NCBI GenBank assembly: GCA_963780445.1
Contig: CAWACC010000008.1
Span: 12,523 to 76,522, forward strand
Source: an uncultured Parachlamydiaceae bacterium
GTDB taxonomy: Bacteria; Chlamydiota; Chlamydiia; Chlamydiales; Parachlamydiaceae
Reading direction: 5' to 3'
Length of the DNA stretch: 64,000 bases
Made by a program: the position numbers and the translations under genes. Shown piece by piece: positions 24,136 to 47,335 of the stretch. The notes beneath the pieces were generated by a model. It worked only from the letters and a program-made list of their open reading frames with translations. It had not been told where the DNA came from and made no database searches. Positions within the stretch are counted from its first letter, which is position 1. Every line of letters begins with the position of its first letter.

Positions 24136-24217
24136 GGACATAAGGGACCTAAGGGACTAAAGGGACAAAATTCATAATTTTATGTCCCTTAGGTCCCTTA
24201 GGTCCTTTAGGTCCCTT
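24105..24217. repeat. Family-B (AAGGGAC 9-mer) palindrome, copy 1
   Basis: The left arm has about 6 units of NNAAGGGAC, the loop is AAAATTCATAATTTTA, and the right arm is TGTCCCTTAGGTCCCTTAGGTCCTTTAGGTCCCTT. Confidence 0.9.
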
Positions 24218-25541: not shown

Positions 25542-26462
25542 ATGCAAAGTGTAAATACAAGTTTACCTATAGTTTATCCATCATTTCAAAACCTGGAAAG
25601 TGGATGGAACATGCTTCCTCAAGATCTATCAAACATTATTTTTACCTACGCTGGCGCGGAAAATCTTCCTTCGCTAGCTTTAACATGCAAAAATTGGTCC
25701 GTTCTAGCTGATAATAAAGAATTTAGAGAAAATATACGGCCTGCCGGAATTTTTGGGACTAAGGAATGGAAAGAAACTTTTGATGTCAATGCCGGTGAAG
25801 AACCTATTTTGCCAAGATGCGCCTACGCGGAAATGAAAGATGATAAGTTTCAGATCATTTTAGTTCCTGAAAAAGTTAAGGATGAGAAGGATGAAATTAA
25901 TCTATATAGTAAAGAAGGGATAGATAAACTATTAAAAAAAACAAAAAAATTAACTTTAAGGACAAATTGCGGTTTTATTTCAAATTCCTTCAAAATAGTC
26001 AAACCTGAGAAAACACACTGGCTATCTATTGCAAAAGACTATATAGATGGCGGTGATTATTACAATGGACAATTCCATGACATAGCAAAAAGACCGGTAT
26101 CTGTACCAACCGGATTTTTCGGGTGTGATGTAAAACTTATACAAGCAAAAAAAGGAGAAGACATTTCTAGGCTCATAGATACTATAATAACTCGTAGTAT
26201 ACGATATATCACAGAGCCTGTTTATGGACAAAAATTTTTAGTTGTTAAAGAAAAAAGAGATTCTAAAACTCATATATGCATCCATATTGATGGCAAGCTA
26301 TTGTGCGTTGGACATCCTGAAAATTATTCTTATGAAAATTGGACCTATAATATTACTTTGGCGAAAAGATATTTTGCTTCTGAACAAAATGCAATGGAAA
26401 TCTGTGATCCTGATAATGCAATTAAAAAAACGACCTTAACGACCTTAACGGTACGTCCTTAA
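25542..26462 (+). CDS. F-box-like protein with a C-terminal domain of unknown function (paralog family 1, copy 1)
   Basis: 306 aa with an F-box-like segment LPQDLSNIIFTYAGAENLPSLALTCKNWSVLADNKEFRENI. Nearly identical to 26700..27593 and related to 59724..60581. The last 13 aa (KKTTLTTLTVRP) are read from family-C/D repeats. Confidence 0.65.
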   Translation: MQSVNTSLPIVYPSFQNLESGWNMLPQDLSNIIFTYAGAENLPSLALTCKNWSVLADNKEFRENIRPAGIFGTKEWKETFDVNAGEEPILPRCAYAEMKDDKFQIILVPEKVKDEKDEINLYSKEGIDKLLKKTKKLTLRTNCGFISNSFKIVKPEKTHWLSIAKDYIDGGDYYNGQFHDIAKRPVSVPTGFFGCDVKLIQAKKGEDISRLIDTIITRSIRYITEPVYGQKFLVVKEKRDSKTHICIHIDGKLLCVGHPENYSYENWTYNITLAKRYFASEQNAMEICDPDNAIKKTTLTTLTVRP

Positions 26463-26600
26463 AAAGTCATGGCACCACATGACTTTTTATGAGAAAGTAG
26501 CCAGGGCGTCCCGCCCTGGCACAAGCCGAGACGCCTGGTTACCTTTTCATGCTTCGCCTTGTCATAACTTTTAGGACGTACCAATAACGTCCTTAAGAAC
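26425..26600. repeat. Family-C units followed by family-D element, copy 2
   Basis: AAAACGACCTTAACGACCTTAACG followed by GTACGTCCTT...AGGACGTACCAATAACGTCCTTAAGAAC. Relative to copy 1 it has an extra hairpin AAAAAGTCATGGCACCACATGACTTTTT. Confidence 0.85.
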
Positions 26601-26699
26601 ATTTTTATTGTAGATTCTTAAATCCAAATTTGGTAATATACATGTTCAAGAATATGAAAAAATAAAAAATATAACCCTAAAAATTAATAAGGAGATTTT

Positions 26700-27593
26700 A
26701 TGCAAAGTATAAATACAAGTTTACCTATAGTTTATCCATCATTTCAAAACCTGGAAAGTGGATGGAACACACTTCCTCAAGATCTATCAAACAATATTTT
26801 TACCCAAGCTGGCGCGGAAAATCTTCCTTCGCTAGCTTTAACATGCAAAAATTGGTCAGTTCTAGCTGATAATAAAGAATTTAGAGAAAGTATACGGCCT
26901 GCCGGAATATTTGGCGCTAAGGAATGGAAAGAAACTTTTGATGTAGATGCCGGTGAAGAACCTAATTTGCCACGATGCGCCTACGCGGAAATGAAAGATG
27001 ATAACTTTCAGATCATTTTAGTTCCTGAAAAAGTTAAGGATGAGAAGGATGAAATTAATCTATATAGTAAAAAAGGGATAGATAAACTATTTAAAAAAAC
27101 AAAAAAATTAACTCTAAGGACAAATTGCCCTTTTATTTCAAATTGCTTCAAAATAATCAATCCCGAGAAAACACACTGGCTATCTATTGCAAAAGACTAT
27201 ATAAACACTGGTGGCTATTACAATGGTCAATTCCATGACATAGCAAAAAGACCGGTACACGTACGAATGGGATCTTGTGTTGTAAAACACATTCAGGCAA
27301 AAAAAGGAGAAGATATTTCTAGGCTCATAGATACTATAATAGCGCAAAGTATAAAATATATCAAAAAGCCAGATTTTAAAATGAAATTGTTCGTTGTTAA
27401 AGAAAAAATAGATTCTAAGACCCATATATGCGTCCATATTTACTTTGACATGCTTCATGGAATGGAATTGTGCGTTGGACATCCTGAAAATTATTCTTAT
27501 GAAAATTGGACCTATAATATTACTTTAGCAAAAAGATATTTTGCTCCTGAAGAAAATGCAATGGAAATCTGTGATCCTGATAATGCAATTTAA
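26700..27593 (+). CDS. F-box-like protein (paralog family 1, copy 2)
   Basis: 297 aa, a tandem duplicate of 25542..26462 (start-to-start period 1158 bp) with the same N-terminus and F-box-like motif. It stops at a TAA just before the family-C repeat. Confidence 0.65.
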   Translation: MQSINTSLPIVYPSFQNLESGWNTLPQDLSNNIFTQAGAENLPSLALTCKNWSVLADNKEFRESIRPAGIFGAKEWKETFDVDAGEEPNLPRCAYAEMKDDNFQIILVPEKVKDEKDEINLYSKKGIDKLFKKTKKLTLRTNCPFISNCFKIINPEKTHWLSIAKDYINTGGYYNGQFHDIAKRPVHVRMGSCVVKHIQAKKGEDISRLIDTIIAQSIKYIKKPDFKMKLFVVKEKIDSKTHICVHIYFDMLHGMELCVGHPENYSYENWTYNITLAKRYFAPEENAMEICDPDNAI

Positions 27594-27662
27594 AAAACGA
27601 CTTTAACGACCTTCACGACGATAATAAAAATGTCGTTAAGGTCGTTATTGTCGTTTGTCGTT
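27594..27662. repeat. Family-C (AACGAC) palindrome
   Basis: AAACGACTTTAACGACCTTCACGACGAT / loop / GTCGTTAAGGTCGTTATTGTCGTTTGTCGTT. Confidence 0.85.
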
Positions 27663-28502: not shown

Positions 28503-28665
28503 AAAGGGACGAAAGGGACCTAAAGGACATAAGGAACCTAAAGGACATAAGGGACAAAACGACAAACAACGATAACGACCTGAACGACAATAACGACCTT
28601 AACGACAAACGACTTGTTTATTGTCGTCGTTAAAGTCGTTATTGTCGTTAAAGTCGTTTGTCGTT
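28503..28665. repeat. Family-B direct array (28503-28555) abutting a family-C palindrome (28556-28665)
   Basis: AAAGGGACGAAAGGGACCTAAAGGACATAAGGAACCTAAAGGACATAAGGGAC, then AACGAC-unit arms around the loop TTGTTTATT. Lies immediately downstream of the 5S rRNA. Confidence 0.9.
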
Positions 28666-28678
28666 AAATAAAAAAAAA

Positions 28679-28794
28679 GCCTGGCGGCGACCTACTCTCC
28701 CACACTCTTGTGTGCAGTACCATCGGCGATGAAAGGCTTAACTTCTGAGTTCGGAATGGGGTCAGGTGTTTCCCTTTCTCTATTGCCACCAGGC
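28679..28794 (-). rRNA. rrf: 5S ribosomal RNA
   Basis: The reverse complement reads GCCTGGTGGCAATAGAGAAAGGGAAACACCTGACCCCATTCCGAACTCAGAAGTTAAGCC...GGGAGAGTAGGTCGCCGCCAGGC, followed by a T-run. Confidence 0.93.
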
Positions 28795-29023: not shown

Positions 29024-31967
<2,944 letters not shown>

Positions 31968-32621: not shown

Positions 32622-34158
<1,537 letters not shown>

Positions 34159-34376
34159 AAAAAAAAAATTTTGAAAATTTGTTGGTGACACTTTACGTGT
34201 CTTTTATAATTCGTGATTTATCGTTTATTATAACGAGTTCACGTACAAGCTTTATTTCGTTTGCACATCGTCTTTTATCTACTGTCAAAACAACATTGAT
34301 CGCATCAGGCGATCTGTTCGATTCATTTGATATTAGCTTGCCCTTGCCTACTACTCACCATGCGAATGAAGCTCAA

Positions 34377-34450
34377 ACTATACAAGTTAACCTATTATTT
34401 TCGCAAGCACTTTTTTACTTTTTTTTTATTTTTTTTTAATTTTTTTTTAA
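34377..34450 (-). promoter_or_regulatory. Candidate rRNA promoter with an A/T-rich UP-like tract
   Basis: On the minus strand: TTGCGA, an 18-nt spacer, then TATAGT, preceded by about 40 nt of A-runs (AAAAAAAAATTAAAAAAAAATAAAAAAAAAGTAAAAAAG). Located about 220 nt upstream of the mature 16S 5' end. Confidence 0.3.
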
Positions 34451-34472
34451 TCGCGTTGAGAACATATTGTAG

Positions 34473-34623
34473 AAGGGTAAGGGACCAAAGGGACGAAAGG
34501 GACCAAAGGGACCAAAGGGACGAAAGAGACATAAGGGACATAAGGGACATACAAAATATGCTGTGATTCCTTACGCCCTTTCGTCCTTTATATCCCTTTT
34601 GCCCCTTATGTCCCTTTGGTCCC
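34473..34623. repeat. Family-B (AAGGGAC 9-mer) palindrome, largest copy
   Basis: Eight consecutive 9-bp units (GTAAGGGAC CAAAGGGAC GAAAGGGAC CAAAGGGAC CAAAGGGAC GAAAGAGAC ATAAGGGAC ATAAGGGAC), a loop, then degenerate inverted units ...CCCTTATGTCCCTTTGGTCCC. Confidence 0.92.
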
Positions 34624-35379
34624 AGTTGCCTTTTGCAATAATGCTGTGATCACTTCCGGATTATTATCATATATTTTTTTTACAATTTCATTTAGCAGTG
34701 TTCTAGCTCCCTTATGATTTTTTTCTACAGCTTTTTTAAGCCAGAACAAAGCCTTTTGAATTCTAGCCATGCAATCTTTTTTGGTTTCATTATCTGGCAC
34801 CCACGCACCTCCTTGATCAAGCAATCGCTTTCCCAAAAAGTAGGTAGCTTCCAGGTGCCCTTTATTTGCTGCCTGCTCTAACCAGTAGAGAATTACCTCG
34901 ACTTTAGGTCCATCCTCAAAATCATTCGTGTATATGATATAACCATAATAGGCAGTATAATACAGCCATAATGCTTTAGGGTTTTCAAAAGGATCTCCAT
35001 CTTCATTCTCCACATATCTTTTGGCCAATATATATAGGGCATAATAATCCTCCGGGTTTGCGACCACATCGAGATGATGCATGCATTTAAAATACTGCCT
35101 TGCAGCTTTTTCAGTTACATAGTATCTTCCATAAGCATCTTTCAGCTCTCTTACATTTGATGAATATAAATACACAGTACGGGACAAATGCTGAAACCAG
35201 TACTTCATATTGGATTGATTCCTTGCATGGATCCTATCGTTTACTATTTTTGAAATGAGACAGCATTTTGCCAGGTGCCGGGGTGTCAGATATCCGAAAA
35301 TTTTGCTTCTGAGCTCTTCTGGAAGGGATACAAAGTCGTAAACTATCTGGTTAGGCGGCTGGGCATTGTAACTAATCAT
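34606..35379 (-). CDS. F-box / Sel1-like repeat protein
   Basis: 257 aa with the canonical F-box LPEELRSKIFGYLTPRHLAKCCLISKIVNDRI and Sel1-like repeats (WLEQAANKGHLEATYFLGKRLL; WLKKAVEKNHKGARTLL). The C-terminal ...TGTKGT* is encoded by the family-B repeat. Confidence 0.75.
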   Translation of the reverse strand: MISYNAQPPNQIVYDFVSLPEELRSKIFGYLTPRHLAKCCLISKIVNDRIHARNQSNMKYWFQHLSRTVYLYSSNVRELKDAYGRYYVTEKAARQYFKCMHHLDVVANPEDYYALYILAKRYVENEDGDPFENPKALWLYYTAYYGYIIYTNDFEDGPKVEVILYWLEQAANKGHLEATYFLGKRLLDQGGAWVPDNETKKDCMARIQKALFWLKKAVEKNHKGARTLLNEIVKKIYDNNPEVITALLQKATGTKGT

Positions 35380-35421
35380 AAATTCTCCTTTAATGAATTT
35401 TTTGGATAAATAGCGGGTCCA

Positions 35422-36225
35422 TTATCTGTTTTGGAGGACCCAGATGTCTTGTTTGATTGATTTTTGCGGGTAGTCTGACACCTGTTCTAGAATATGGAAT
35501 TCCTTAAAGAGGTCAAACTTTAAAAATTTTGGGCTGTGGAAGGCTGCAAAGCCTCTTCTACCTTCGGTGATATCATCGCGGACGACTAATCTTCCCTGAT
35601 CATACTCTCCTTTTTCCTGATCTGACAGCAGATATCGAAAGAAATCGCCGTGAGAGGTCAAAATAAGGACCCCATTCGGTTTTAAAATTCTTTTTAGTTC
35701 ATGGATCCACGCGAACTGCATGTCTTCGGAAAGGTGTGTAATGACTGAAAGGCCATAGATTGCATCAAAGAAGCTAGGAGGATAGTGGAGAGGAGGTTTT
35801 AAATCATTGCATGAGAAATCGATTCTTGGAAAGTTATTTTGACACCATTCAAAAGTCTGTTTGTTGAAGTCTGTGCCAAAAAGTTCTGGGGTTCGTGAAG
35901 CAAGAATCCGGGGCATATGTTTGAGGACACGTACGGGGCCGCAACCCCAATCCAATACATGAAGAGGGCATTGAGTTGTATATTTCAGGATTATACCGGC
36001 AATCCAGCGGGCGTCTTCAAAGCCTGATTCTTCATACAATTCAAAGTCCACGTGGCCATAGGCATCGAATGCAAGCTCTAGCGGAGGGGGAATAAAAGAA
36101 GGATTTTTTTTTAGAAAATTCCTGTTTTTTTCCTTCAACTTTATGTATTTGCAACGTGATCTGAAGTAATCCAGTACTGGGATAAGATTGAGTCTTGATA
36201 AAATTATCTTTACGTAATTTTTCAT
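35422..36225 (-). CDS. Class I SAM-dependent methyltransferase
   Basis: 267 aa with motif I VLDWGCGPVRVL and post-I/II blocks (FDAIYGLSVITHL; LKPNGVLIL). Confidence 0.75.
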   Translation of the reverse strand: MKNYVKIILSRLNLIPVLDYFRSRCKYIKLKEKNRNFLKKNPSFIPPPLELAFDAYGHVDFELYEESGFEDARWIAGIILKYTTQCPLHVLDWGCGPVRVLKHMPRILASRTPELFGTDFNKQTFEWCQNNFPRIDFSCNDLKPPLHYPPSFFDAIYGLSVITHLSEDMQFAWIHELKRILKPNGVLILTSHGDFFRYLLSDQEKGEYDQGRLVVRDDITEGRRGFAAFHSPKFLKFDLFKEFHILEQVSDYPQKSIKQDIWVLQNR

Positions 36226-36324
36226 AAAAAAAACTATTTAAAATAATGTGGGGTAATTTTTATATTGAATCCATTTGGATTTAATTGTATAGGGTTAATC
36301 AGGAAACCTTATATTAAAATTATT

Positions 36325-37128
36325 ATGCCAGGTTTTTGCTATAAGGACAAGGGAATACCCTGCCTGATCTTTATTATAGCCCTTTTGCTGCCAGGGGTTA
36401 GCATAGCGTTTGATACCCTATTAGACCTGAGTTTTCTTGAATATCATACACATCACTTTTGGAATAAACAGGGGCAAAGGAAGAACAGCCGGACTCATTT
36501 TAGAAAGAACGAAGGACAGATCTATTTTGAGGTAATCCCTGTTCCAGGCTGTGTCTTTTCAACTCTAGGGACCTTTGCGGCCATTCATGATCGCCTGAAT
36601 GGGAATGCCTATGGTTTTGGAGATATCGAGCTTAACTGGACATTTCAACCTCTCCCTAACTGCGCAGAGACTTTCTGGTTGAATGTGACGACGATAATCC
36701 CCGCAGGGGATGAAAAAGATTCTTTGCGTTATGGACGATGGGCCATAGAAGGGGATCTATTTTATTCCAATGCGAAACTCGTTTATGATGTGCCTTGCTG
36801 GTATTATGTGGGTATAGGGTACCGTGCCTATCAGGGTTTCCCCTCGGATCAGGTCCGGGCCATTATCAATGGAACTGCAGCCCTTTCTTCCCGCCTGTTT
36901 TTATATGGGATAGGCAATGTGGAGTGGGGAATATTTAATGGAAGAAGAAAGGAACATTTTAATCAGATTTTGTATAATCCCAATTATAGGCTTGTAAAAA
37001 TTCAGACTGGAATTTTGGGATATATTACCGACTGGCTGTATGTTGATGCCGGGTATTACCGGCATGTTTGGGGGGAAAACATCGGAACAGGAGGAGGTTT
37101 CATTGGAGGTTTTGGTTTGCGTTTTTAG
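36325..37128 (+). CDS. Putative outer-membrane beta-barrel protein
   Basis: Start placed at the first ATG (MPGFCYKDKGIPCLIFIIALLLPGVSIAFD, signal-like). Alternating aromatic/Gly-rich segments end in the typical OMP terminus GGFGLRF*. The track ORF begins at a TTG at 36265. Confidence 0.5.
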   Translation: MPGFCYKDKGIPCLIFIIALLLPGVSIAFDTLLDLSFLEYHTHHFWNKQGQRKNSRTHFRKNEGQIYFEVIPVPGCVFSTLGTFAAIHDRLNGNAYGFGDIELNWTFQPLPNCAETFWLNVTTIIPAGDEKDSLRYGRWAIEGDLFYSNAKLVYDVPCWYYVGIGYRAYQGFPSDQVRAIINGTAALSSRLFLYGIGNVEWGIFNGRRKEHFNQILYNPNYRLVKIQTGILGYITDWLYVDAGYYRHVWGENIGTGGGFIGGFGLRF

Positions 37129-37858
37129 GTATTTTCTTTGTATTTTTTTTATTTTGAATACCACAAGCGGAATCTGCGAAATTTCCACTTACTTTTTGCC
37201 CGAAGATCACCCGGTAAAGCCCATTGCGGATGCGCTTTTTTCTCAGAGCCGAGCTACATTGGATATCAAATCGATGAAAAATGCAGGTTTTATCGATCCC
37301 TATCCCAGAAAATTCACCCATGTCGTTGTCACTCGCCATCCCTTGCTGGAAGGGTATGTTTTGAAAGTGTACCTGGATGCCCAGCGCTATTTTAAAAAGG
37401 AGTCGGAGCTTTACCATTGGCTGAACCGCATAACCGGAGCGGAACTCATTCGAAAGTACATTGAGGAAAACAGCCTCGAGGAAATATTCAAAGTGCCTCA
37501 GAAATGGATTTACCGATTGCCCGATTTTCCCGCTCCTGCACGGGAATTTCTTAAAAAGGAATATATCCTGATTGTAGAGGATATGGAACTGGTTTCGCGG
37601 GAAGAAAATAAGGAACTGTGGTCTAGCGCGTTGGTCACACCTGATTTATTGCATCATATTTTCACTCTATTAAATACTATAGGTTTGCATGACTGCGGCA
37701 GCATTGAAAACATACCGTTCACAAAAGATGGCAGGATTGCTTTCATAGACACTGAAACGTACAACTCTTGGCCTGTAAATTTTAAGAAATTGGCTCCTGG
37801 CTTATCCAAAGAAATGAAAATATACTGGAATCAACTGGTATTAGAAGAAAAAAAATAA
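37040..37858 (+). CDS. Protein-kinase-like (PKL) fold protein, atypical
   Basis: VLKVY (beta3 Lys-like), hinge LIVEDME, catalytic-loop-like LHDCGSIENIPF (HxDxxxxN), and metal-binding AFIDTE. The start is uncertain: the track ORF overlaps the upstream gene by 89 nt and the true start is probably downstream. Confidence 0.4.
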   Translation: MLMPGITGMFGGKTSEQEEVSLEVLVCVFRYFLCIFFILNTTSGICEISTYFLPEDHPVKPIADALFSQSRATLDIKSMKNAGFIDPYPRKFTHVVVTRHPLLEGYVLKVYLDAQRYFKKESELYHWLNRITGAELIRKYIEENSLEEIFKVPQKWIYRLPDFPAPAREFLKKEYILIVEDMELVSREENKELWSSALVTPDLLHHIFTLLNTIGLHDCGSIENIPFTKDGRIAFIDTETYNSWPVNFKKLAPGLSKEMKIYWNQLVLEEKK

Positions 37859-37930
37859 AATACTATTTTATTGAAATTCGCTTTTCTGATTTCATATGTA
37901 CAGAAATTCTCAACTTTGGAGGAGATGCGT

Positions 37931-38266
37931 ATGAAAGTGTTAAGCGGTTTTATTTTTTTTACATCCATGATCAGTTGCCTGGGATCTTTAGACGCACATA
38001 GGCATGAAGTCATTGTCATAGAGGAAGAACCTGCTGTGGATTGTGTCGTGGAGCAGGCACCACCTGAAGATATGGTGGAAGTATGCACTCCTTGCCCGGG
38101 AGCGAATTATTTCTGGATAAAAGGACGCTGGCATTGGAAGCATGGATGGCAATGGGCGCCGGGTCGTTGGGAAGTGCGCCCTTATGCTGCAGCTGTATGG
38201 AGCCATGGCCATTGGAAACGCAAACACCATGGATGGGTATGGATCGAAGGGCATTGGACACACTGA
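37931..38266 (+). CDS. Small secreted WxxGxW-repeat protein
   Basis: Start moved to the ATG at 37931 (GGAGG lies 8 nt upstream). Signal peptide MKVLSGFIFFTSMISCLGS. C-terminal repeats WIKGRWHWKHGWQWAPGRWEV and WSHGHWKRKHHGWVWIEGHW. Confidence 0.6.
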   Translation: MKVLSGFIFFTSMISCLGSLDAHRHEVIVIEEEPAVDCVVEQAPPEDMVEVCTPCPGANYFWIKGRWHWKHGWQWAPGRWEVRPYAAAVWSHGHWKRKHHGWVWIEGHWTH

Positions 38267-38269
38267 CCC

Positions 38270-39163
38270 ATGTTTTGCAAACGCCTGAAAAAAGAAATTG
38301 CTCCCGGCACTTTCATTTCCACTCCCGCGCGCCTCATGGCTATATTGCAATTGTGCCTGGCTTTTACGGTCCTGGCATGGCAGGCGGGTTATCCCTTTAT
38401 GGGAGAGCTGTTTGAAATAAAATCAAAATTGCTGGTCTATGACTATGTGATGGGGGTGAACAATGCAACCTATGCAGAACAGTTTTCGAATCTGCCCGAA
38501 AAGAAGAAAGAAGAAATTTTAAGGGAATACCAGACCTTAAAAGCTCATTTGGGCCGCCCTTTTGTGGATAAAGCGCTAGATTCTGTAGAAAGGGTATTTT
38601 TCAGCCTATCCCCCTTCAAATTATTGTGGATATTCTTCTCCATCATTATTCCCATTTTATTGCTTAAGAAGGTCGAAGGGGCCGCTTCAGTGATCTGGCT
38701 CCTTCCCTTGACCACCATGGTATTTATTGTCCATAACAGATGGTATGGAGAGGTGGTTCCTCTTTCCAAGGATACACAGCTTTTTCCTACTGAAGAAATC
38801 ATTGTTAATAACTATTTGAGGCATCCTTTGAGTTCCGATTTAAACCTGCAGGAGAAGCAGCTTCGCAATGGCTGGGAACTGTATTTGATTGAGGAATGGG
38901 CAAAAGAAACTCCTTCTTCGGATGCCTTCCAATTCACATTACAGAAAGAAAAAGGCGATTTTGCATTTAATCTTGCCCGGCTTTCCGGGCTGGAAATCAA
39001 ACCCTATAAATCATTCAATAATACACAGGAATCCTATCCTGTTTTGGCTCTCTATTTATTTTGGAACCTATCTTTTGCGTTAGTGGTGGGATCGGCTCTC
39101 CAGACTCCGCAGACAAGGCAAACAATACAAATTGTGTACCATTCTTCACCACTGAGCCAGTGA
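38270..39163 (+). CDS. Hypothetical integral membrane protein
   Basis: 297 aa with several TM helices. The start is 3 nt after the upstream stop, suggesting translational coupling. The last codons (SSPLSQ*) lie inside the family-A repeat arm. Confidence 0.5.
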   Translation: MFCKRLKKEIAPGTFISTPARLMAILQLCLAFTVLAWQAGYPFMGELFEIKSKLLVYDYVMGVNNATYAEQFSNLPEKKKEEILREYQTLKAHLGRPFVDKALDSVERVFFSLSPFKLLWIFFSIIIPILLLKKVEGAASVIWLLPLTTMVFIVHNRWYGEVVPLSKDTQLFPTEEIIVNNYLRHPLSSDLNLQEKQLRNGWELYLIEEWAKETPSSDAFQFTLQKEKGDFAFNLARLSGLEIKPYKSFNNTQESYPVLALYLFWNLSFALVVGSALQTPQTRQTIQIVYHSSPLSQ

Positions 39164-39270
39164 GATCACTGAGAAGGTTTGAGATAGGGAGGATAGATGC
39201 CTATTGATCAACTGTAACATGGCATTTGACGTACGTCCTTAAAAAGTTATGGCAAAGCAAAGCATGAAAA
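39143..39270. repeat. Half family-A element (39143-39200) plus a partial inverted family-D fragment (39228-39270)
   Basis: TTCTTCACCACTGAGCCAGTGAGATCACTGAGAAGGTTTGAGATAGGGAGGATAGATGCC has no right arm. GACGTACGTCCTTAAAAAGTTATGGCAAAGCAAAGCATGAAAA is the reverse complement of the family-D right arm. Confidence 0.8.
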
Positions 39271-39359
39271 TCTTCTTCATTGAATTAAATTTTATTTTAA
39301 TTATATTGACTTTAGATTTTTATTAAAAACATTAAATATTAAATTAAATAGAGATTTGT

Positions 39360-41222
39360 ATGAACAAAATTGATTCTATTAATCCTGCATTCGAGACTCC
39401 TCTTCACCTGGCAGTCAAAAGAGGTGATTTGCCCCAATGTAAATTATTGTTGGAGAAGGGCGCTAATATTAACGCCATCAATTGCCTTGGACAAAAAATA
39501 TTACCTATTGCATACGAATCTGAAAACAAAGAGCTCAGGTTCTTTTTTTTAAAAGAGATGATGAAAACCAAACCATTGTCCAATGATGGCAAGACTCCCA
39601 TTTTTGAATATGAGTGTTATCATCACAAACCTCTTTCCGACAAGGAATATGATGATTTTGAAGCGCCTCATAATGAGTTGACAAAATTGACAAAAGAACT
39701 GAAGCTTTTAGGCTTACGCTTTTCTTTACGAGGAAACGTCTTTGAAGGGAGCCCCTCTTTTTTAACCTATAATGCTCTCGCTTCATCTCTGGAAAACTAT
39801 TTAAAGCTCAATCCAGGGCAACCAGCGTCTATTCAATCCATTCCTGATATCATTAAAAATTCTGTAAATATTAAATCTGAGGAAATAATCACACAATTAA
39901 AGCAAAACAAAATAGCGACCCTTTCTTGCGGTTGGCCAGGACATGAAACAACAATAGTCTGTTCTAATAAATATTTAATAATCTGTAATAGGGGAAGTCA
40001 ATGTGGGGATAAACCTGGAATCACCCTATATTCGATTAATAATCCTGCAAAGCTTGATGCCATTATCAGAACCCTTATTGAAAATAGACAGTGGAAACTG
40101 GATCAGAAGGAACAAGCCAAAATTGCAATTGAGGGTACAAGAATTGCTTTTCTAAAAGAAAACATGAAAGAAAAATTTATTAATTTTTTTAATAAAGAAT
40201 TACAGGAAACATTGAAACTTAAAGAACTTCGATATTTCAAACAAAAACCTCAGACAAGTGGAAACTGTGCCTGGATTGGGCCAAAAATGGCTTTCCAGGG
40301 AATTATTATCCTCAATTCAATGCTGGAAAACCCCAATGCCGACCTCGATGACCTTATAAAGGAATCCAAAAAAATTTATACTGAATGGAAAGAATTTGAT
40401 TTGATTCATTCTTTGAAAATCCTCTCCGAAGCGGAAAAAGAACCTTTACTCAAATCTATAGTCGATTTTGAAGCAGTCTATGATGAGTTGTTTGCTTTAA
40501 ATCTTTCAAGAAAACCAGCTCTTGATATGCTATGCAATGCACGACCTCGTTTAAAAGAGTGGATTTCCAATCCCCCTTCTCACGTGATTTCCCATGCCTA
40601 TCAGCATAAGAGTTCAAAACTTTTAAAATCGTGCCTTTCCGCTGGCATTCCACCTGATTTGGAAAAGTTCAGCAAGTGCAACGATAACAAAATCTCCGAC
40701 ATTCATTACGATTACTTTCTAAAGAAAGATATAAAAGCCAATCAGGCGGATGCTTCCGGGATAACTCCTCTGCATGCCCTGTGCTGCAATGCTAACACAG
40801 CCAAGTTGCTGGAACTATTAAAATCCTGGAAAAAGGAAAGTGAAGAACTGAAAGAACCGCAATTATTTCAGAATGCCTTAAACGGTAAAAGTAGTTTAGG
40901 ATTGAACTTTCTTGATGTTCTAATTACAAAAGCAAAGGATCTGGCATCTTTAAAAGAATTGATCGATTGGTCCATTAAATCCGGAGCTGGTATTTTTGAT
41001 GCGACTATTCAGAATACCTTGGTAAAATTCAAAAAAACAGAAGACCTGGAAGTGATCAAAATGCTGTTGAAAAATGCAGGTTATTCTTTGGATGATTGCG
41101 CTTTCCTCTTTGATAATTTATTGAATGGTGAGCCTTACGAATTTACGGAAGCGGTTTTTATGGATTTGTCAGCAGATAGACAAAAATCCCTGCAAAATAA
41201 CCCAGAAGGGCAGGTACAGTAA
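39360..41222 (+). CDS. Ankyrin-repeat protein with a large non-repeat central domain (candidate effector)
   Basis: 620 aa with an N-terminal ANK repeat (TPLHLAVKRGDLPQCKLLLEKGANINAIN) and C-terminal ANK repeats (ITPLHALCCNANTAKLLELL...). The central region of about 350 aa carries the motifs GWPGHETTIVCSNKYLIICNRG and QTSGNCAWIG. Confidence 0.7.
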   Translation: MNKIDSINPAFETPLHLAVKRGDLPQCKLLLEKGANINAINCLGQKILPIAYESENKELRFFFLKEMMKTKPLSNDGKTPIFEYECYHHKPLSDKEYDDFEAPHNELTKLTKELKLLGLRFSLRGNVFEGSPSFLTYNALASSLENYLKLNPGQPASIQSIPDIIKNSVNIKSEEIITQLKQNKIATLSCGWPGHETTIVCSNKYLIICNRGSQCGDKPGITLYSINNPAKLDAIIRTLIENRQWKLDQKEQAKIAIEGTRIAFLKENMKEKFINFFNKELQETLKLKELRYFKQKPQTSGNCAWIGPKMAFQGIIILNSMLENPNADLDDLIKESKKIYTEWKEFDLIHSLKILSEAEKEPLLKSIVDFEAVYDELFALNLSRKPALDMLCNARPRLKEWISNPPSHVISHAYQHKSSKLLKSCLSAGIPPDLEKFSKCNDNKISDIHYDYFLKKDIKANQADASGITPLHALCCNANTAKLLELLKSWKKESEELKEPQLFQNALNGKSSLGLNFLDVLITKAKDLASLKELIDWSIKSGAGIFDATIQNTLVKFKKTEDLEVIKMLLKNAGYSLDDCAFLFDNLLNGEPYEFTEAVFMDLSADRQKSLQNNPEGQVQ

Positions 41223-42438
41223 TTTTTCTAAGGTACCAGAAAAAATCGACTTTTTGCACACCCATAAAGACAACCCCTGCGGCGGATCCGATCAATAGGA
41301 TACTGCCGCCCGTTCCGGCGCAAAAAGCAATCAATTCCCACAGCGCATGGTCTGGCGGGTATTGCTCCAAACTATACATTCCCATAGTGGCTGCCACGAG
41401 CGGGACGTTATCTATTACGGCAGAGACGATGCCGATAATGGTAGCGATGATGCTTATATTTCCAATGGACTCATCCAAGAATCTGGCTACGGCAGATAAA
41501 ATATTGGCGCTTTCCAAAGCATTGACGCACAATAAAATTCCGAGGAAGAAAAGGGCGCTGGACAGATCAATTCTAGAAAGGACAGCCGGTACTCTCAGAT
41601 CCTCACCGGAAGGATCCCTGTAATGAAGCAAGTCTGTAACTAGCCACATGATTCCAAGTCCGAATAACATCCCCATAAAAGGAGGAAGCCCTGTGAGAAT
41701 TTTGAAGATGGGAACGAAAACAAGGCAACCTATCCCAAGAGAGAAAATCAGGACACTAGTAGGGCTTACCTTTTCTTTTTGAGACGTCGTTATTTTTTCT
41801 TCATTATTGGATTTTATCATGAAGTAGAGCCAAGCAAAACTGACGACAAAAGAGACAAGGCTCGGTAAAAAAAGGGTTTTTATAATGTTCAAAGTCGTTA
41901 TTTGACCGCCGATCCATAGCATGGTTGTGGTTACATCTCCGATGGGAGTCCAGGCCCCTCCCGCATTCGCCGCGATGACAATCCCGCCGCCTATGAGGAG
42001 TTTGTCTTCTTTATCTTTAACAAGTTTGTTTAGCAAGGCCAACATCACTATAGTTGTAGTCAGATTGTCCAAAATGGCCGACAGGAAAAAGGCAATAATG
42101 CCTATAATCCATAATAATGTTCTTTCAGATTTTACCTGGATAAGATTGGAAACGATCTGGAAACCCTTGTGCACACTGATGATTTCCACTATGGTCAAAG
42201 CCCCGACCAGAAAAAACACCACCTGTGAAATATTGGCCAGATGATGGCCTAAAAAAACCAGATTTTCTTCTTTCGTAACCCCCGAGTGCGCGAACTGCAG
42301 CACCCAGCATATGACAGCCATCAAGAGGGCGATGGTGGTTTTATTGATTTTTGTATAGTGCTCAAAAGTAATTAAGGCATATCCTATGATAAATACGATG
42401 GAAATCCATAATCCTGTGAAATGAATGGAGTCTGACAT
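41158..42438 (-). CDS. NhaD/ArsB-superfamily Na+/H+ antiporter-like permease
   Basis: 426-aa polytopic membrane protein with an ArsB/NhaD-like duplicated architecture. Its 3' end overlaps the convergent ankyrin gene by 65 nt. Confidence 0.65.
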   Translation of the reverse strand: MSDSIHFTGLWISIVFIIGYALITFEHYTKINKTTIALLMAVICWVLQFAHSGVTKEENLVFLGHHLANISQVVFFLVGALTIVEIISVHKGFQIVSNLIQVKSERTLLWIIGIIAFFLSAILDNLTTTIVMLALLNKLVKDKEDKLLIGGGIVIAANAGGAWTPIGDVTTTMLWIGGQITTLNIIKTLFLPSLVSFVVSFAWLYFMIKSNNEEKITTSQKEKVSPTSVLIFSLGIGCLVFVPIFKILTGLPPFMGMLFGLGIMWLVTDLLHYRDPSGEDLRVPAVLSRIDLSSALFFLGILLCVNALESANILSAVARFLDESIGNISIIATIIGIVSAVIDNVPLVAATMGMYSLEQYPPDHALWELIAFCAGTGGSILLIGSAAGVVFMGVQKVDFFWYLRKITVPALLGYFAGIFVYLLTNP

Positions 42439-42514
42439 ATGAAATTATCCTTCTTTCTATGTATAAAATTCATTGATACAGTAAAATGATATTTTATGGA
42501 ATGATAAGTTGTCA

Positions 42515-43027
42515 ATGGAAACTAGGTTATTGGTCATTAAAACCCATCTTAAACCAGCTATAAAAAGGACAGCCTTAGTCAGAGGTACTTTGCTGGGTGG
42601 ACTGGGAGCTGTTATTATGGTTTTAGGCGGAATATATATTCCTCTCAATTCACTTGCAGTATGGGGCCTTCCGCTATTTCTGGCGGGTTTCGGTCTGATC
42701 ACCCTAGGCCTTCTCCCCTATCGAAAACTGTTGCGGCAAGAACAGCAGCCCTGTGAACTGCATCTTTATGAGGCCAGGCTGTTATTTATACACAAAAGGA
42801 TTCTTCTCACCTTGCCTCTGGCCAGTATAGAAAAAATGGAATTTCAAACCCTTCGAAACATGGAAGGTATTACTGTATATCTTAAAAATCCTGTACCAGA
42901 GAAAATAGTGCTTCACAGGCAGCGGCTTTCTGCAAAGCAATTGTATTATTTTAAAAACGCCCTATTTTTCCCTAATTTCAGCCATAGATCTTACGAAGAA
43001 TTAATGAAAGGGACCAAAGGGACATAA
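42515..43027 (+). CDS. Hypothetical membrane protein
   Basis: About 170 aa with two N-terminal TM helices. The C-terminal MKGTKGT* is encoded by a family-B repeat. Start placed at the first ATG; the track uses a TTG at 42509. Confidence 0.45.
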   Translation: METRLLVIKTHLKPAIKRTALVRGTLLGGLGAVIMVLGGIYIPLNSLAVWGLPLFLAGFGLITLGLLPYRKLLRQEQQPCELHLYEARLLFIHKRILLTLPLASIEKMEFQTLRNMEGITVYLKNPVPEKIVLHRQRLSAKQLYYFKNALFFPNFSHRSYEELMKGTKGT

Positions 43028-43051
43028 ATTTGTTGTCCCTTAGGTCCCTTT
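43007..43051. repeat. Family-B hairpin between convergent genes
   Basis: AAAGGGACCAAAGGGACATAAATTTGTTGTCCCTTAGGTCCCTTT fills the whole convergent spacer, in a bidirectional-terminator-like position. Confidence 0.85.
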
Positions 43052-43052
43052 C

Positions 43053-44021
43053 TTAGAGGCCTGACTGAAGGATATCATGCAGTTTTATGACCCCTGCAAC
43101 AGTATCGGCTTCATCGACGACTGCCAGAACGGTGATCGGATGTTTGGGATCAGCTTCCATTTTTTGCAGAGCCGTCCAGGCCAATTCTTCCGGGCGGATG
43201 GTCCTTGGAGTCAGGGTCATAATTTCTTTCATTTTTATTTCCAGGGCGTTCGAGCCTATTTTCTGCAGTGTCCTTCGCAAGTCCCCATCGGTAAAGATGC
43301 CTAGGAGTTTCCGATTGTGGTCCACAACCAGAACACAGCCGCAGCGTTTGTTTGAAAGTTCGACCAGCGTATCAACAAGAGTGTCCTCAGGCCCGCACAA
43401 AGGGATGGCAGAACCTGTAAGCATCAAGTCTATTACTTTCATCACCAGACGCCGTCCGATCCGTCCGGAAGGATGGTTCATGGCGTATTGGTCTTGGGAA
43501 AACTGCTTGATCTCCATCAAGGATATCGCCAATATATCTCCTATGATCATTTGCATTACGGTGGAAGTGGTTGGAGCCAGGTTATAGGGGCAAATTTCCC
43601 TGTCGGTCGGAATAGTTAACACAAAATTGCTGGCCTTGGCCAGCCGGCTTTCCGGATTGGATACAATAGATAGGATCTTAACCCCTTTATTGCGAAGAAA
43701 AGGCACCAGATGCAACAGTTCATCGCTTTCGCCGCTTTTGCTGATTAGAATAATCATATCGTTTTCTGTCACAATCCCGATGTCGCCATGCAAAGCGTTT
43801 ATCGGAGAGACGAATAGAGACCTAGTGCCTGTAGAAGTCAGTGTGACAGATATTTTCTCGGCGACCAGTCCGCTTTTTCCAATCCCTGACAAGAGAATGA
43901 TGCCCCGGCACTCCCGAAGGATACCGATCATTTTTTCCAACTGCACGAGATCCAATTTCTCAAAAAAATGATTTAAATAATTGCGCTCGTTGACCCATAG
44001 CCTTTCTATGACATCTTGCAT
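43053..44021 (-). CDS. kdsD: Arabinose-5-phosphate isomerase (KdsD/KpsF; SIS + tandem CBS domains)
   Basis: 322 aa with an SIS domain (LLSGIGKSGLVAEKISVTLTSTG) and two C-terminal CBS domains. This is the Kdo pathway enzyme expected in Chlamydiae. Confidence 0.85.
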   Translation of the reverse strand: MQDVIERLWVNERNYLNHFFEKLDLVQLEKMIGILRECRGIILLSGIGKSGLVAEKISVTLTSTGTRSLFVSPINALHGDIGIVTENDMIILISKSGESDELLHLVPFLRNKGVKILSIVSNPESRLAKASNFVLTIPTDREICPYNLAPTTSTVMQMIIGDILAISLMEIKQFSQDQYAMNHPSGRIGRRLVMKVIDLMLTGSAIPLCGPEDTLVDTLVELSNKRCGCVLVVDHNRKLLGIFTDGDLRRTLQKIGSNALEIKMKEIMTLTPRTIRPEELAWTALQKMEADPKHPITVLAVVDEADTVAGVIKLHDILQSGL

Positions 44022-44122
44022 ACAGAAAACCTTTCCAAATTTAAAAAAACAGTAATTTCTAAATGGATTTTAATTGATATCTTCATTACTCTCAAGCTTG
44101 TTTTTGTACTTTGAGGTAAAAC

Positions 44123-45577
44123 ATGAATATTAAAAAAATTCCTATAACCATTGCTGAAGGAGATGGCATTGGCCCAGAAATTATGAACGCAACTTTGTTG
44201 ATTCTGGAAACTGCCAAAGCCCCGCTTGATATTCATCGCGTGGAAATAGGGGAAAAAGTGTATAAGCGAGGTGAAAAGACCGGCATTGAACCTGCGACAT
44301 GGGATGCGATCCGCCGGACAAAGGCTTTTTTAAAAGCTCCCATAACCACTCCGCAAGGAGGAGGATTCAAAAGCCTGAATGTGACTATCCGGACTTCTCT
44401 TGGGCTTTATGCCAATGTGAGGCCCTGTATTTCTTACAGCCCCTTTGTGGAATCAAGGCATCCCAAAATGAATGTCGTCGTCGTAAGGGAAAACGAGGAG
44501 GACCTCTATACAGGCATAGAATACCGCCAGACACCGGATACCTACCACGCCTTGAAAATCATCACCAGGCCAGGATGTGAAAAGATCGTCCGTTATGCGT
44601 TTGAATATGCCAGGGCGAACAAAAGAAAAAAGGTGACCTGTTTTACAAAAGACAACATCTTAAAACTATCCGACGGGCTTTTTCACAAAATCTTTGACGA
44701 AATCGCAAAAGAGTACCCTGATCTGGAAAATGAACATTGGATTGTGGATATCGGCGCTGCCAAGCTGGCGGATACTCCCGAAGTCTTTGATGTGATCGTC
44801 ATGCCCAATTTATATGGAGATATCCTCTCCGATGTGGCCGCCCAGATTGCCGGCTCTGTGGGACTGGCCGGATCGGCCAACATTGGAGAACACGGGGCCA
44901 TGTTTGAAGCCATTCATGGATCAGCTCCCAGGCGGGCAGGGCAGAACCTGGCAAATCCCTCGGGACTCCTGCTGGCGGCAGTACAAATGCTGGTACATTT
45001 GGGACTTGCTGAAACAGGGACTCTAATCCACAATGCCTGGTTGAAAACCTTGGAAGATGGCATTCATACCTATGATATTTTCAAACCCAATACAAGCAAG
45101 GAAAAGGTAGGCACAAAAGAATTTGCGAAAGCTGTAGCTGCCCGATTGGGCCAAATCCCGCATACGCTCAAGGCGGTTCATTATGCCGCACCTAACATGA
45201 GCAAACACACACCTTCGCAGCCATCTTCCCAAGCTCCAAAGATAACAAAGGAACTTGTTGGCATCGACGTTTTTATTGAATCTCATGGAGATGTAGAATC
45301 CCTGCAAAAAAAATTGTCCTCCCTGAAAAACAAGGATTTCAAACTCACGATGATCAGCAACCGCGGAGTGCGCGTATGGCCGGAAAAGATGCCTGAGACC
45401 TCCTGCAGCGATACCTGGAGGTGTCGTTTCATGAAGAAAGAAAACAAACTCCATTTAAAGCAGTTAGCGGAGCTTATTCAAAATCTGGCAGATGCCCAAG
45501 TGGATTTTGTCAAAACAGAACATCTGTACACTTTTGATGGAGTGCCGGGGTATACGGTAGCCCAAGATGAACAATAA
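44123..45577 (+). CDS. icd: Isocitrate dehydrogenase (isocitrate/isopropylmalate DH family, long form with a C-terminal extension of about 130 aa)
   Basis: 484 aa with the family signature NLYGDILSDVAAQIAGSVGLAGSANIG. The stop codon TAA is the first base triplet of the family-B repeat (TAAGGGAC). Confidence 0.8.
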   Translation: MNIKKIPITIAEGDGIGPEIMNATLLILETAKAPLDIHRVEIGEKVYKRGEKTGIEPATWDAIRRTKAFLKAPITTPQGGGFKSLNVTIRTSLGLYANVRPCISYSPFVESRHPKMNVVVVRENEEDLYTGIEYRQTPDTYHALKIITRPGCEKIVRYAFEYARANKRKKVTCFTKDNILKLSDGLFHKIFDEIAKEYPDLENEHWIVDIGAAKLADTPEVFDVIVMPNLYGDILSDVAAQIAGSVGLAGSANIGEHGAMFEAIHGSAPRRAGQNLANPSGLLLAAVQMLVHLGLAETGTLIHNAWLKTLEDGIHTYDIFKPNTSKEKVGTKEFAKAVAARLGQIPHTLKAVHYAAPNMSKHTPSQPSSQAPKITKELVGIDVFIESHGDVESLQKKLSSLKNKDFKLTMISNRGVRVWPEKMPETSCSDTWRCRFMKKENKLHLKQLAELIQNLADAQVDFVKTEHLYTFDGVPGYTVAQDEQ

Positions 45578-45786
45578 GGGACTAAAGGGACCAAAGGAAC
45601 ATAAAGGTTTACCACTGAGCCAGTGAGATCACTGAGAATGTATGAGATAATTGAGAGGAGTCTGAAACATATGTTAAAAGACGGACTTAATAGTATAGGA
45701 GTTGAATCTAACTCGCCCTATCTCATACCTTCTCTGTGATCTCACTGGCTCAGTGGTAAACCATGTCTTTTATGTCCCGTCTTTCA
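45575..45786. repeat. Composite element: family-A copy 4 (45608-45760) nested between family-B arms
   Basis: TAAGGGACTAAAGGGACCAAAGGAACATAAAGG | TTTACCACTGAGCCAGTGAGATCACTGAGAATGTATGAGATAATTGAGAGGAGTCTGAAACATATGT ... CTCACTGGCTCAGTGGTAAACC | ATGTCTTTTATGTCCCGTCTTTC. Confidence 0.9.
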
Positions 45787-46449
45787 TTGCTTTTCAACCT
45801 CGAATTTTTTGAATAATTCCCTGATGGCATTCCCTCGATCATTATCAAATTCATCCGATTTTATTATTCTTGCTATCGTGATTGTATCATAATCGATTTT
45901 TGCATTCATATCTGCTCCACTTTTCAGCAAAAATTCAATGATAGAAAGAGGCATAGACCTATTATATATATAATTAAGACATGCCGCAAGAAGAGGTGTC
46001 ACTCTACAATAAGTACGAGTATGTCCGCGTTTACAGTTCAAACTTTGCGGAATTAGCCTCACGATATCTTTGATATCCTTTTCGGTTTCTTGAGTATATG
46101 CCTTAATGGAATGATCGCCAAATGGGAGATTCCATCCGGTAAAAACAGCATCGAGAAGATGAGGATTTACATCACCGTCTTGTTCTCCATATTGCTCATA
46201 ATATTCGTTATATACAGAATATTTATTTACAAGCTCGTGGATTCTTTTTAGATCTTTCATTTTTTCAGAAAATACTACTGATGTTTCTTTGTTAATTTTG
46301 GCAATGTTGTTTATTGTGTTGGCATAATTTTTTATTTTGCAACTTGTAATCATTGTTGGTTGATCAAGAATGGCAATTTTTAAAATAATTGAATTGACCT
46401 CTGAAGGCAATTCTGGAAATAAGGGAAATGATAAATTTAAGTTGGACAT
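45784..46449 (-). CDS. F-box-like / ankyrin-repeat protein (paralog family 2, copy 1)
   Basis: 221 aa with N-terminus MSNLNLSFPLFPELPSEVNSIILK (tentative F-box-like LPxE...IL motif) and a C-terminal ANK-like segment TPLLAACLNY...IIEFLLKSGADMNAKI. One of three tandem paralogs. Confidence 0.6.
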   Translation of the reverse strand: MSNLNLSFPLFPELPSEVNSIILKIAILDQPTMITSCKIKNYANTINNIAKINKETSVVFSEKMKDLKRIHELVNKYSVYNEYYEQYGEQDGDVNPHLLDAVFTGWNLPFGDHSIKAYTQETEKDIKDIVRLIPQSLNCKRGHTRTYCRVTPLLAACLNYIYNRSMPLSIIEFLLKSGADMNAKIDYDTITIARIIKSDEFDNDRGNAIRELFKKFEVEKQ

Positions 46450-47229: not shown

Positions 47230-47253
47230 GATGTCTCCTATTATATTAGATTT

Positions 47254-47315: not shown

Positions 47316-47335
47316 TTAGATTTTTGAACACGATT

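Follow-up and report, generated by a model that had tools for sequence, protein, structure and literature searches.

What are the long palindromes of tandem 9-bp units that recur at gene boundaries in a chlamydial chromosome, and what might they do there? The question is raised by a palindrome at positions 34473-34623 of a 64,000-nt stretch of DNA from an uncultured Parachlamydiaceae bacterium (GenBank assembly GCA_963780445.1, contig CAWACC010000008.1; the whole stretch is referred to as the window). This focal copy belongs to a group of repeats, family B, for which a first-pass annotation of the window had put forward two ideas: a terminator or insulator, or an array of binding sites. With a probability of about 0.6, we interpret family B as non-autonomous hairpin repeats that mark transcript ends, similar to repetitive extragenic palindromic (REP) sequences and to rRNA intervening sequences (IVS), with a heptamer that is probably the recognition unit of a protein.

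Anatomy, stability and placement of the family-B palindromes

Family B consists of dispersed intergenic palindromes made of tandem 9-bp AAGGGACNN units. All seven copies annotated in the 64 kb were recovered at their coordinates, as were the eight units in one arm of the focal copy (Table 1). The heptamer AAGGGAC has 39 exact matches on the two strands compared to 7.9 +/- 2.8 expected, and none of 100 dinucleotide-preserving shuffles reached 39. Tandem Repeats Finder and lag autocorrelation agreed with the annotated strict 9-bp period, the latter yielding six arrays at lag 9 and 0-1 at lags 6-8 and 10-12. In 49 units aligned in register, positions 1 to 7 (A46 A43 G41 G45 G44 A44 C43) are 84-94% conserved, followed by variable positions 8 (A24/C16/G6/T3) and 9 (T25/A21/C2/G1). 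The earlier description that only the last two positions vary is correct in outline but too strict, since A or T occupies position 9 in 46 of the 49 units and degenerate units (AAAGGAC, AAGGAAC, AAGAGAC) are present.

Six of the seven copies are palindromic, and their AAGGGAC arm is always located 5' on either strand. The array starting at 28503 is direct only, as had been annotated, though a palindrome belonging to a second 9-bp family adjoins it (28573-28668). A short AT-rich loop between facing arms, described as general, is found in four copies, but in two others (45575-45786 and 49716-49903) an inverted-repeat element of about 150 bp is nested exactly between the arms. Complementarity of the spacers across opposite arms amounts to 46%, compared to 30% by shuffle (P = 0.0005). 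At this modest level, pairing alone does not account for the conserved heptamer.

Predicted folding of family-B copies as RNA gave values between -22.8 and -83.3 kcal/mol (z-scores between -5.7 and -10.7), the two strands behaving alike. For the focal copy, the minus strand gave -83.3 kcal/mol (z -10.7) and the plus strand -75.8 kcal/mol (z -9.1); the corresponding values were -62.9 kcal/mol (z -7.9) for 24105-24217, -31.9/-31.3 kcal/mol for the two strands of 43007-43051, and -22.8 kcal/mol (z -5.7) for 57990-58035.

Together with at least four copies of the second family, family A, the seven family-B copies constitute a set of dispersed, extragenic, imperfect palindromes, every one of which lies at a gene boundary. 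At 24105, 34473 and 49716, a stop codon is situated within the array or at most 4 nt away from it, and at 43007 and 45575 this applies to both of the converging genes. The focal copy overlaps the final codons and the stop of an F-box-like ORF (open reading frame; 34606..35379, minus strand) and lies between the 3' end of this gene and an A-tract with a promoter-like site of the rRNA operon. At 24105-24217, the left arm contains the stop codon of a PseB-like gene (24133-24135), whose product runs 11 residues past its family profile and ends within the array. The palindrome 43007-43051 separates the convergent genes 42509..43027 (plus strand) and kpsF (43053..44021, minus strand), the icd stop codon is the TAA of the first unit at 45575, with the convergent gene 45784..46449 ending within the right arm, and the array 49716-49903 is preceded by a stop codon at 49709-49711. 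The composite element 28503-28668 begins 10 nt past the 5S rRNA 3' end (minus strand), and the rRNA operon is flanked by two elements, the other being the focal copy. The annotated placement after stop codons or in convergent spacers therefore applies to most copies, but 57990-58035 lies 5' of a gene. Its 3' arm is immediately followed by the Shine-Dalgarno sequence AGGAGG, and its distance to the start codon equals the array-to-start spacing found upstream of four helix bundle suffix genes elsewhere (see below).

Several known repeat classes were rejected. CRISPR loci have repeats of 24-48 bp and unique spacers of similar size, while the unit here has 9 bp and a variable part of 2 bp. A collagen-like or other coding repeat of three residues does not fit, as the window copies are palindromic, intergenic, and contain or follow stops. 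Footprints of 9-bp target-site duplications were dropped because the flanking units are inverted, not direct. In an Rfam scan of the window gathering scores were reached solely by rRNAs and two tRNAs, and the family-B arrays matched none of the covariance models.

Turnover, recurrence across phyla and a linked gene

The behaviour of the arrays at the strain level was followed in a metagenome contig from the European Nucleotide Archive (L117/L200), which matches window positions 34150-48998 colinearly at about 95% DNA identity. Over 12.6 kb, L117 and the window differ by only three indels of at least 4 bp, two of which are whole-unit changes in the palindrome 43007-43051. The comparison of unit numbers between strains that the first-pass annotation had proposed thus gave a difference at this site, with 2+2 units in the window and 4+3 in L117. 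The copy at 45575-45786 is kept in L117 with an altered first unit. In L200, the focal copy has an inverted core and a reverse-complemented loop, so that the 8-unit arm adjoins the gene and not the rRNA promoter, as expected from recombination between inverted arms; the sequence of the A-tract and promoter-like site (34377-34448) is conserved. In L118 and L119, whose icd is 78% identical, the orthologous kpsF/icd sites are without arrays, and the post-icd spacer of L119 carries three canonical hairpin+T terminators where the window has an array and a nested element. Unit changes, inversion and absence from the 78%-identity relatives imply that family-B copies are young, unstable and lineage-specific in position. 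Differing in unit number and core orientation between near-identical strains, such loci are useful as strain markers, and the arrays are likely to cause assembly breaks in metagenomes.

The distribution of the arrays was determined by scanning a single genome of each GTDB species for a three-unit pattern, which yielded at least 115 stretches, an arbitrary subset as far as taxon proportions are concerned. By record titles, 56 of the 115 matches listed belong to the PVC superphylum (Planctomycetes-Verrucomicrobia-Chlamydiae), namely Verrucomicrobiota, Planctomycetota including Brocadiia, Lentisphaerae/Victivallales, Kiritimatiellae and Chlamydiales; among these matches, several genomes have 3-5 loci each. 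The design (MARGGACNN)n-loop-inverse is shared by Planctomycetota, Verrucomicrobiota, Lentisphaerota, Chlamydiota and further phyla, and the specific form (AAGGGACNN)n - loop - (NNGTCCCTT)n is present in many of the loci listed, including metagenome-assembled genomes of Acidobacteria and Armatimonadota. Among 122 arrays in the matches listed, inverted units lie downstream, with the G-rich arm 5', in 27 and upstream in 4. In viral contigs, permuted heptamers formed at least 117 and 32 arrays with 9-bp period compared to 41 for the real motif, and both the permuted sets and the viral matches of the real motif were almost never palindromic. The raw number of arrays is therefore not distinctive; the palindromic, polar architecture alone is. 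This also indicates that many direct-only matches are probably coding repeats, and those in Bartonella, Cohnella, Streptomyces and the viral contigs may well be coding. The literature searched contained no description of nonamer arrays or of their link to a gene, so that inverted, phased MARGGACNN nonamer arrays constitute, as far as we found, a widespread and undescribed class. A heptamer and an exact 9-nt phase common to several phyla argue for a conserved reader rather than for species-specific selfish DNA.

A candidate partner emerged when all ORFs of the 115 array-selected loci were clustered (3042 ORFs with a minimum length of 100 aa). Among the recurrent families that were checked in these matches, one alone directly adjoins arrays, a four-helix-bundle protein, and all three copies of its gene (L101, L060, L003) sit between complementary arrays: L101 has the order (AAGGGAC)3 - gene - (GTCCCTT)2, and in L060 the gene likewise lies between AAGGGAC and GTCCCTT arrays. 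The L003 protein scores 75.8 bits with TIGR04258, the four helix bundle suffix domain (cut-off 40), and 25.5 bits with TIGR02436 (cut-off 24), the four helix bundle protein model of the S23p / 23S rRNA intervening-sequence family. The L060 protein reaches 55.7 bits with the former and 22.1 bits, slightly under the cut-off, with the latter. The Pfam scores for PF05635 (21.4 bits for L003 and 18.8 bits for L060) are under the cut-off of 33.8. The suffix family comprises at least 8000 proteins at E <= 1e-10, with named members from Pirellulaceae and Verrucomicrobiota.

The linkage was tested independently in 80 metagenome loci whose encoded homologues are 57-74% identical. Pairs of GGAC..GGAC or GTCC..GTCC with exact 9-bp spacing were counted within about 220 nt upstream of the start, which was estimated from alignments in the metagenome loci (gene models in the other loci being ORF-based), and within 250 nt downstream of the stop. 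Phased pairs occurred in the upstream flank of 43 of 70 loci and in the downstream flank of 30 of 68, compared to 2/87 and 1/64 for other long ORFs of the same loci; with the start estimates of this comparison, the gene's own counts were 30/67 and 30/65 (Fisher 3e-11 and 5e-10). The signal around the suffix genes was confined to period 9, with 6-8 and 10-12 bp at background. The last GTCC unit ends about 20 nt, mostly 10-36 nt, before the start codon. The consensus from 252 units of 50 loci is M-A-R-G-G-A-C-N-N, with positions 1-3 biased and positions 8-9 near uniform. Remoter homologues are flanked by other 9-bp units (CAAGGAC, GGGGACA, ATGGGAC), and in Prevotella nigrescens AGGGAT/AGGAAT units lie beside an annotated gene of the family. 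The upstream array of a Roseibacillus-like population varies between 2, 3, 4 and 6 units within flanks that are otherwise identical.

Further observations were made on the suffix genes. In L003, a Pirellulaceae contig (JANPLJ010000895.1), gene and nonamer arrays are located directly downstream of the 16S rRNA 3' end and a canonical terminator, which adds a further site beside rRNA genes to the two in the window. As read from translations, the genes in L141, L152, L177, L180 and L199 apparently lie in or beside restriction-modification operons: downstream ORFs start HsdR/HsdS-like and upstream ORFs end DNA-methyltransferase-like. Many predicted suffix proteins have 215-250 aa instead of the usual ~185, for instance P0123, the L003 protein; probably gene callers extended their N-termini through stop-free upstream arrays. 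Many suffix proteins are encoded on contigs of 1-2 kb, as expected if flanking repeats break assemblies. Viral contigs gave no relative of the suffix protein that would point to a phage origin. Campbell-type duplication of the kind seen in L155 was rejected as a general explanation, since extended direct repeats surround the gene in 3 of 58 loci only.

A gene lying between complementary arrays could also mean that the arrays are ends or remnants of a mobile element, resembling miniature inverted-repeat transposable elements (MITEs) or the hairpin-forming REP pairs termed REPINs. The four-helix-bundle gene or a transposase not yet seen would be carried by the autonomous form of this element, from which the solo palindromes would derive by deletion while remaining mobile. 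The arrangement in L101, L060 and L003 fits such an element, as do the duplication of loop and right arm on both sides of the gene in L155, the loops or inner sequences that are often common within one genome (L103; L069/L070/L078; L014/L046), the many gene copies on very short contigs, where repeats tend to be found, and the spread of the motif over phyla. We nevertheless consider this explanation rather improbable. The linked protein has no recognisable catalytic domain, identical proteins were found in the same genomic context only, and 13 kb of two close strains revealed no empty versus filled site. Moreover, the solo copies in the window have inverted arms but no flanking direct repeats, and no insertion sequence with such ends was seen; lacking target-site duplications, the arrays are not MITEs in the strict sense.

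It is unlikely that the arrays are neutral, selfish or slippage-prone palindromes without cellular function that accumulate where they are harmless. Such DNA would be expected to turn over quickly, as seen at the orthologous sites that are empty in the 78%-identity relatives, to vary in unit number and core orientation between close strains, and to have degenerate arms like the right arm of the focal copy. The intrusion of arrays on the last codons of genes and the position of one copy 5' and the others 3' of genes would likewise be in keeping with neutrality. However, drift predicts neither that heptamer and exact 9-bp phase are kept across phyla while the spacers drift, nor the strong polarity bias of 27:4 among the matches listed, nor the constant distance of about 20 nt to the start codon of one gene family.

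Even less probable in our view are binding arrays in double-stranded DNA, serving a nucleoid-associated protein or transcription factor as operators or insulators, with the hairpin being incidental. The fixed heptamer with free spacer and exact phase, the poor pairing of spacers across arms, the existence of direct-only arrays (28503-28555; L033, L070, L078) and the position just upstream of four-helix-bundle starts, like that of an autoregulatory operator, are compatible with this explanation. Yet double-stranded sites do not need the palindromic structure and single polarity of most copies, spacer complementarity still exceeds chance, the copies adjoin the 3' ends of unrelated genes and not promoters, and the linked protein is without a recognisable DNA-binding fold by the sequence and structure searches described below. 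Action of the arms as G-quadruplex or i-motif tracts, (GGG N6) x >=4, on replication or transcription can be dismissed as highly improbable: arms with at least four units (24105, 28503, 34479) fit the textbook G3N1-7 motif, but most copies have 2-3 units per arm, the entire heptamer beyond GGG is conserved, the complementary arm would compete by duplex formation, and the sister family AACGAC and the variants AAAGGAC and CAAGGAC, which have no G3 runs, already count against it.

Second repeat family, nested element and genomic setting

Family A (AACGACNNN / GTCGTTNNN) is a second family of 9-bp-unit arrays and palindromes that shares design and placement with family B. Its RNA folds reach -49.5 kcal/mol (z -9.2) for the family-A part of the composite (28573-28668) and -31.3 kcal/mol (z -7.6) for 27596-27662. 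Unit types of both families occur in one arm at 28503-28668, and AACGAC-type units are intermixed with AAGGGAC units in the Verrucomicrobiota loci L017 and L392. At 25542-27593, two tandem paralogous ORFs of about 300 aa have in common both the 3' end and the family-A units after it.

The nested MITE-like element has inverted ends of about 45 bp (ACCACTGAGCCACTGAGATCACTGAGAA and GTATGAGAT) built of 8-9-bp CACTGAG repeats. Two of its four copies are located exactly in the loop of a family-B palindrome, and the other two have flanking units of family-A type (AACGAC/GTCGTT), on one side only at 22954-23063. Its exact position within the loops of palindromes suggests that this element may insert in a loop-targeted manner.

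Table 1. Repeats of both families, nested elements and rRNA operon features in the window
Feature	Position	Strand	Structure	Setting
Focal family-B palindrome	34473-34623		8 units 34479-34550; loop ~20 nt; ~6 degenerate inverted units 34568-34623	
Family-B palindrome	24105-24217		~7 units, 12-nt AT loop, 4 inverted units	hemA follows
Composite	28503-28668		6 direct family-B units (28503-28557), then family-A AACGACNNN palindrome (28573-28668)	
Minimal family-B palindrome	43007-43051		2+2 units, 11-nt loop	fills convergent spacer
Family-B arms	45575-45607 and 45764-45786		around nested inverted-repeat element 45608-45763	
Family-B arms	49716-49736 and 49884-49903		around second nested-element copy 49737-49883	before argS
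Family-B palindrome	57990-58035		2+2 units	ends 20 nt before ATG at 58055
Family-A palindrome	27596-27662			after gene 26700..27593
Family-A arrays/palindromes	15797-15844, 26429-26450, 27596-27662, 28573-28668			
Nested MITE-like element, four copies	15659-15798, 22954-23063, 45608-45763, 49737-49883		110-155 bp	
Nested element with family-A units	15659-15844		nested element (15659-15798), then 6 family-A units (15797-15844)	degenerate family-A units before
rRNA operon	5S 28679-28793; 23S 29027-31967; 16S 32622-34163	minus	includes tRNA-Ile and tRNA-Ala	
Promoter-like site (consensus scan)	34406->34377	minus	TTGCGA-18-TATAGT	between focal palindrome and 16S
T-rich tract (A-tract on rRNA strand)	34409-34448		40 nt, UP-element-like	directly upstream of promoter-like site

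The window is a segment of a bacterial chromosome with a G+C content of about 43%. It encodes V-type ATPase genes, a chlamydial-type hemA, F-box-like genes and ankyrin genes, and the best named homologue of its icd is from 'Parachlamydia sp.' (77% protein identity). Taken together, these features suggest an amoeba-type representative of the Chlamydiota. An assignment to Waddlia, considered at first because of the G+C content, gained no support, the Waddlia genome paper covering repeats above 200 bp only. The 23S rRNA gene is uninterrupted, with positions 1-2925 of the Rfam model aligned over 2941 nt and no insert. Other repeats were noted as well. A 33-bp tandem repeat at 10057-10152 (ATCCCAGTCATTTCCCCGGCAGGGGAAAATATA; 2.9 copies, 96% identity) carries a CCCCGG/CAGGGG hairpin per copy. 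Three tandem paralogous ankyrin-like ORFs of about 220 aa occupy 45784-48172, with 87-90% DNA identity between copies, L117 versus window. In L117, an insertion of about 465 bp (L117 positions 5621-6084) splits an ankyrin-repeat ORF at about position 40234 of the window, within ORF 39360..41222; the window lacks this insertion, whose borders are formed by 24-nt direct repeats with a small hairpin in each (ACCCTCCCCTAAAGGAGAGGG).

Proposed role and likeness to known systems

Returning to family B as hairpin repeats that mark transcript ends, we propose the following mechanism. As DNA, the arrays act like unstable palindromes: whole 9-bp units are gained or lost, the core inverts, as expected if the two arms recombine, other small elements are taken up in the loops, and copies turn over from one species to the next. 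If arrays persist only where they are tolerated, they would end up at gene boundaries. Transcripts entering from either side would form long stems that pair imperfectly and have a pyrimidine/U-rich 3' arm. Much like REP/BIME repeats and the stems of rRNA intervening sequences (see below), these stems would most likely set transcript 3' ends where genes are closely packed, be it through termination, a block to exonucleases or processing by RNase III. The focal copy would thereby shield the rRNA promoter from read-through. In addition, the heptamer would be read by a trans-acting protein with one unit per subunit, for which the four helix bundle suffix protein (S23p/IVS family) is the prime candidate by genomic linkage. 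Both an effect on transcripts and binding of a protein to the heptamer are what we infer from anatomy, folding, dynamics and linkage.

Both earlier ideas gain from the data to a different extent. A terminator or insulator role is plausible given the position of the focal copy between the F-box-like gene and the rRNA promoter and the canonical terminators at the same site as an array in a 78%-identity relative, and it agrees with gene-end placement and stable hairpins in general; few U-tracts and one copy 5' of a gene speak against it. The related remark that the copies lack U-tracts is accurate for most of them, but T7 follows 49884-49903 and T-rich stretches follow 24217 and 58035. The binding-site array gains most support. 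Conservation of the heptamer across phyla, together with 9-nt spacing and free spacers, points to a recognition unit of a trans-acting protein, pairing is insufficient to explain it, and a linked candidate protein exists.

Several observations weigh against our interpretation. The canonical U-tract is missing in six of the seven family-B copies, and a simple consensus terminator scan flagged none of the seven. A terminator at 57990-58035, only 20 nt upstream of a start codon, would block that gene, and in L392 a canonical terminator precedes the palindrome, implying that the array is not the terminator there. The four-helix-bundle gene is present in neither the 64-kb window nor the 14-kb relative contig L117, so that the link stems from other bacteria. 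Furthermore, an AlphaFold2 (AF2) model of the protein, which is all-helical (mean predicted local distance difference test score, pLDDT, 85), gave no significant Foldseek match in PDB; weak helical-bundle matches included the S23 family entry 2rld in 12th place (E 1.3), and a PDB sequence search with the suffix protein gave no match. Finally, small genes could merely lodge in or next to pre-existing palindromes, in which case their product need not bind them.

A bolder and more doubtful extension, which we put forward tentatively, is that MARGGACNN arrays are the cis partner of the suffix proteins (S23p / IVS-protein / Avd-like) in a cross-phylum module that is mobile or acts in RNA processing. 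Chlamydial copies would then be orphans without ORF, and classical rRNA intervening sequences a special case. If true, a very large protein family, without known role since the 1990s, would thereby gain its first functional handle. The link to suffix genes in any case supplies a testable hypothesis for this huge family and for the origin of rRNA intervening sequences, and dispersed hairpin repeats are of wider interest as they influence transcript ends and genome plasticity. Other candidate functions were dropped: a CsrA-type ANGGA sponge, as the arms are paired and CsrA is not known from chlamydiae, and a topoisomerase IB CCCTT site, DNA uptake sequences, and FtsK-orienting polar sequences (KOPS) or Chi sites as unsupported or untestable.

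With intrinsic terminators the arrays share a stable G+C-containing stem at gene ends with a U-containing arm 3', the arrays being bidirectional by symmetry. They differ by far longer stems (16-60 bp) with periodic mismatches, loops that often exceed 8 nt, and the lack of a U-tract in most copies. Short tandemly repeated repetitive (STRR) sequences of cyanobacteria are dispersed intergenic arrays of short units with hairpin potential. They may be regarded as analogous in dispersal and folding, but their units are heptamers of other sequence and not strict 9-bp inverted pairs. The met boxes of MetJ and the heptads of omega (pSM19035) consist of 7-9-bp units that follow one another without gaps, in exact phase and in both direct and inverted orientation, and are bound cooperatively. 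They suggest by analogy how one subunit per unit might read an array, although they are promoter operators at few loci, whereas the arrays are dispersed, palindromic and located at gene ends.

Closer resemblance is seen to REP sequences and the bacterial interspersed mosaic elements (BIMEs) formed by them, which with REP-associated tyrosine transposases (RAYTs) and REPINs are found in Enterobacteria and Pseudomonas. As in these systems, the arrays are extragenic hairpin repeats that occupy gene 3' ends and convergent spacers, are often clustered, vary in copy structure, attract insertions in their loops and flank one gene family. Proposed roles of REP/BIME include stabilisation of mRNA 3' ends and attenuation of transcription (PMC3733652). 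REP sequences are, however, single palindromes of 20-40 bp and species-specific, while the arms of the arrays are phased 9-bp units with a free dinucleotide whose sequence is common to phyla. Of the conserved tetranucleotides GTAG or CGTC at one end of REP palindromes (PMC3733652), GTAG adjoins the focal copy only (TTGTAGAAGGG), and neither was found at the other six copies. No RAYT flanked by arrays was detected among the recurrent families checked in the 115 loci listed, the window ORFs not having been exhaustively scanned for Y1 transposases; unlike RAYT, an HUH Y1 transposase, the four-helix-bundle protein encoded by the array-linked gene is not known to be catalytically active.

The 23S IVS of Leptospira and Coxiella contain genes of the same protein family (TIGR02436/PF05635) and, as in the array-linked loci, the ORF is bracketed by inverted repeats in a long stem. 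In Coxiella, which offers the nearest precedent, the S23p ORF lies inside an inverted-repeat stem that is cut by RNase III, tandem short repeats of strain-variable number are located upstream of this ORF, and a mobile origin of the IVS has long been suspected (PMC4990558). The window copies differ in being intergenic rather than in 23S helices, in having no ORF and in stems made of nonamer arrays, and the array-linked genes elsewhere carry the extra 'suffix' domain (TIGR04258). Judged by these similarities and differences, we rate the family-B arrays as dispersed extragenic hairpin repeats with a previously unreported candidate protein partner.

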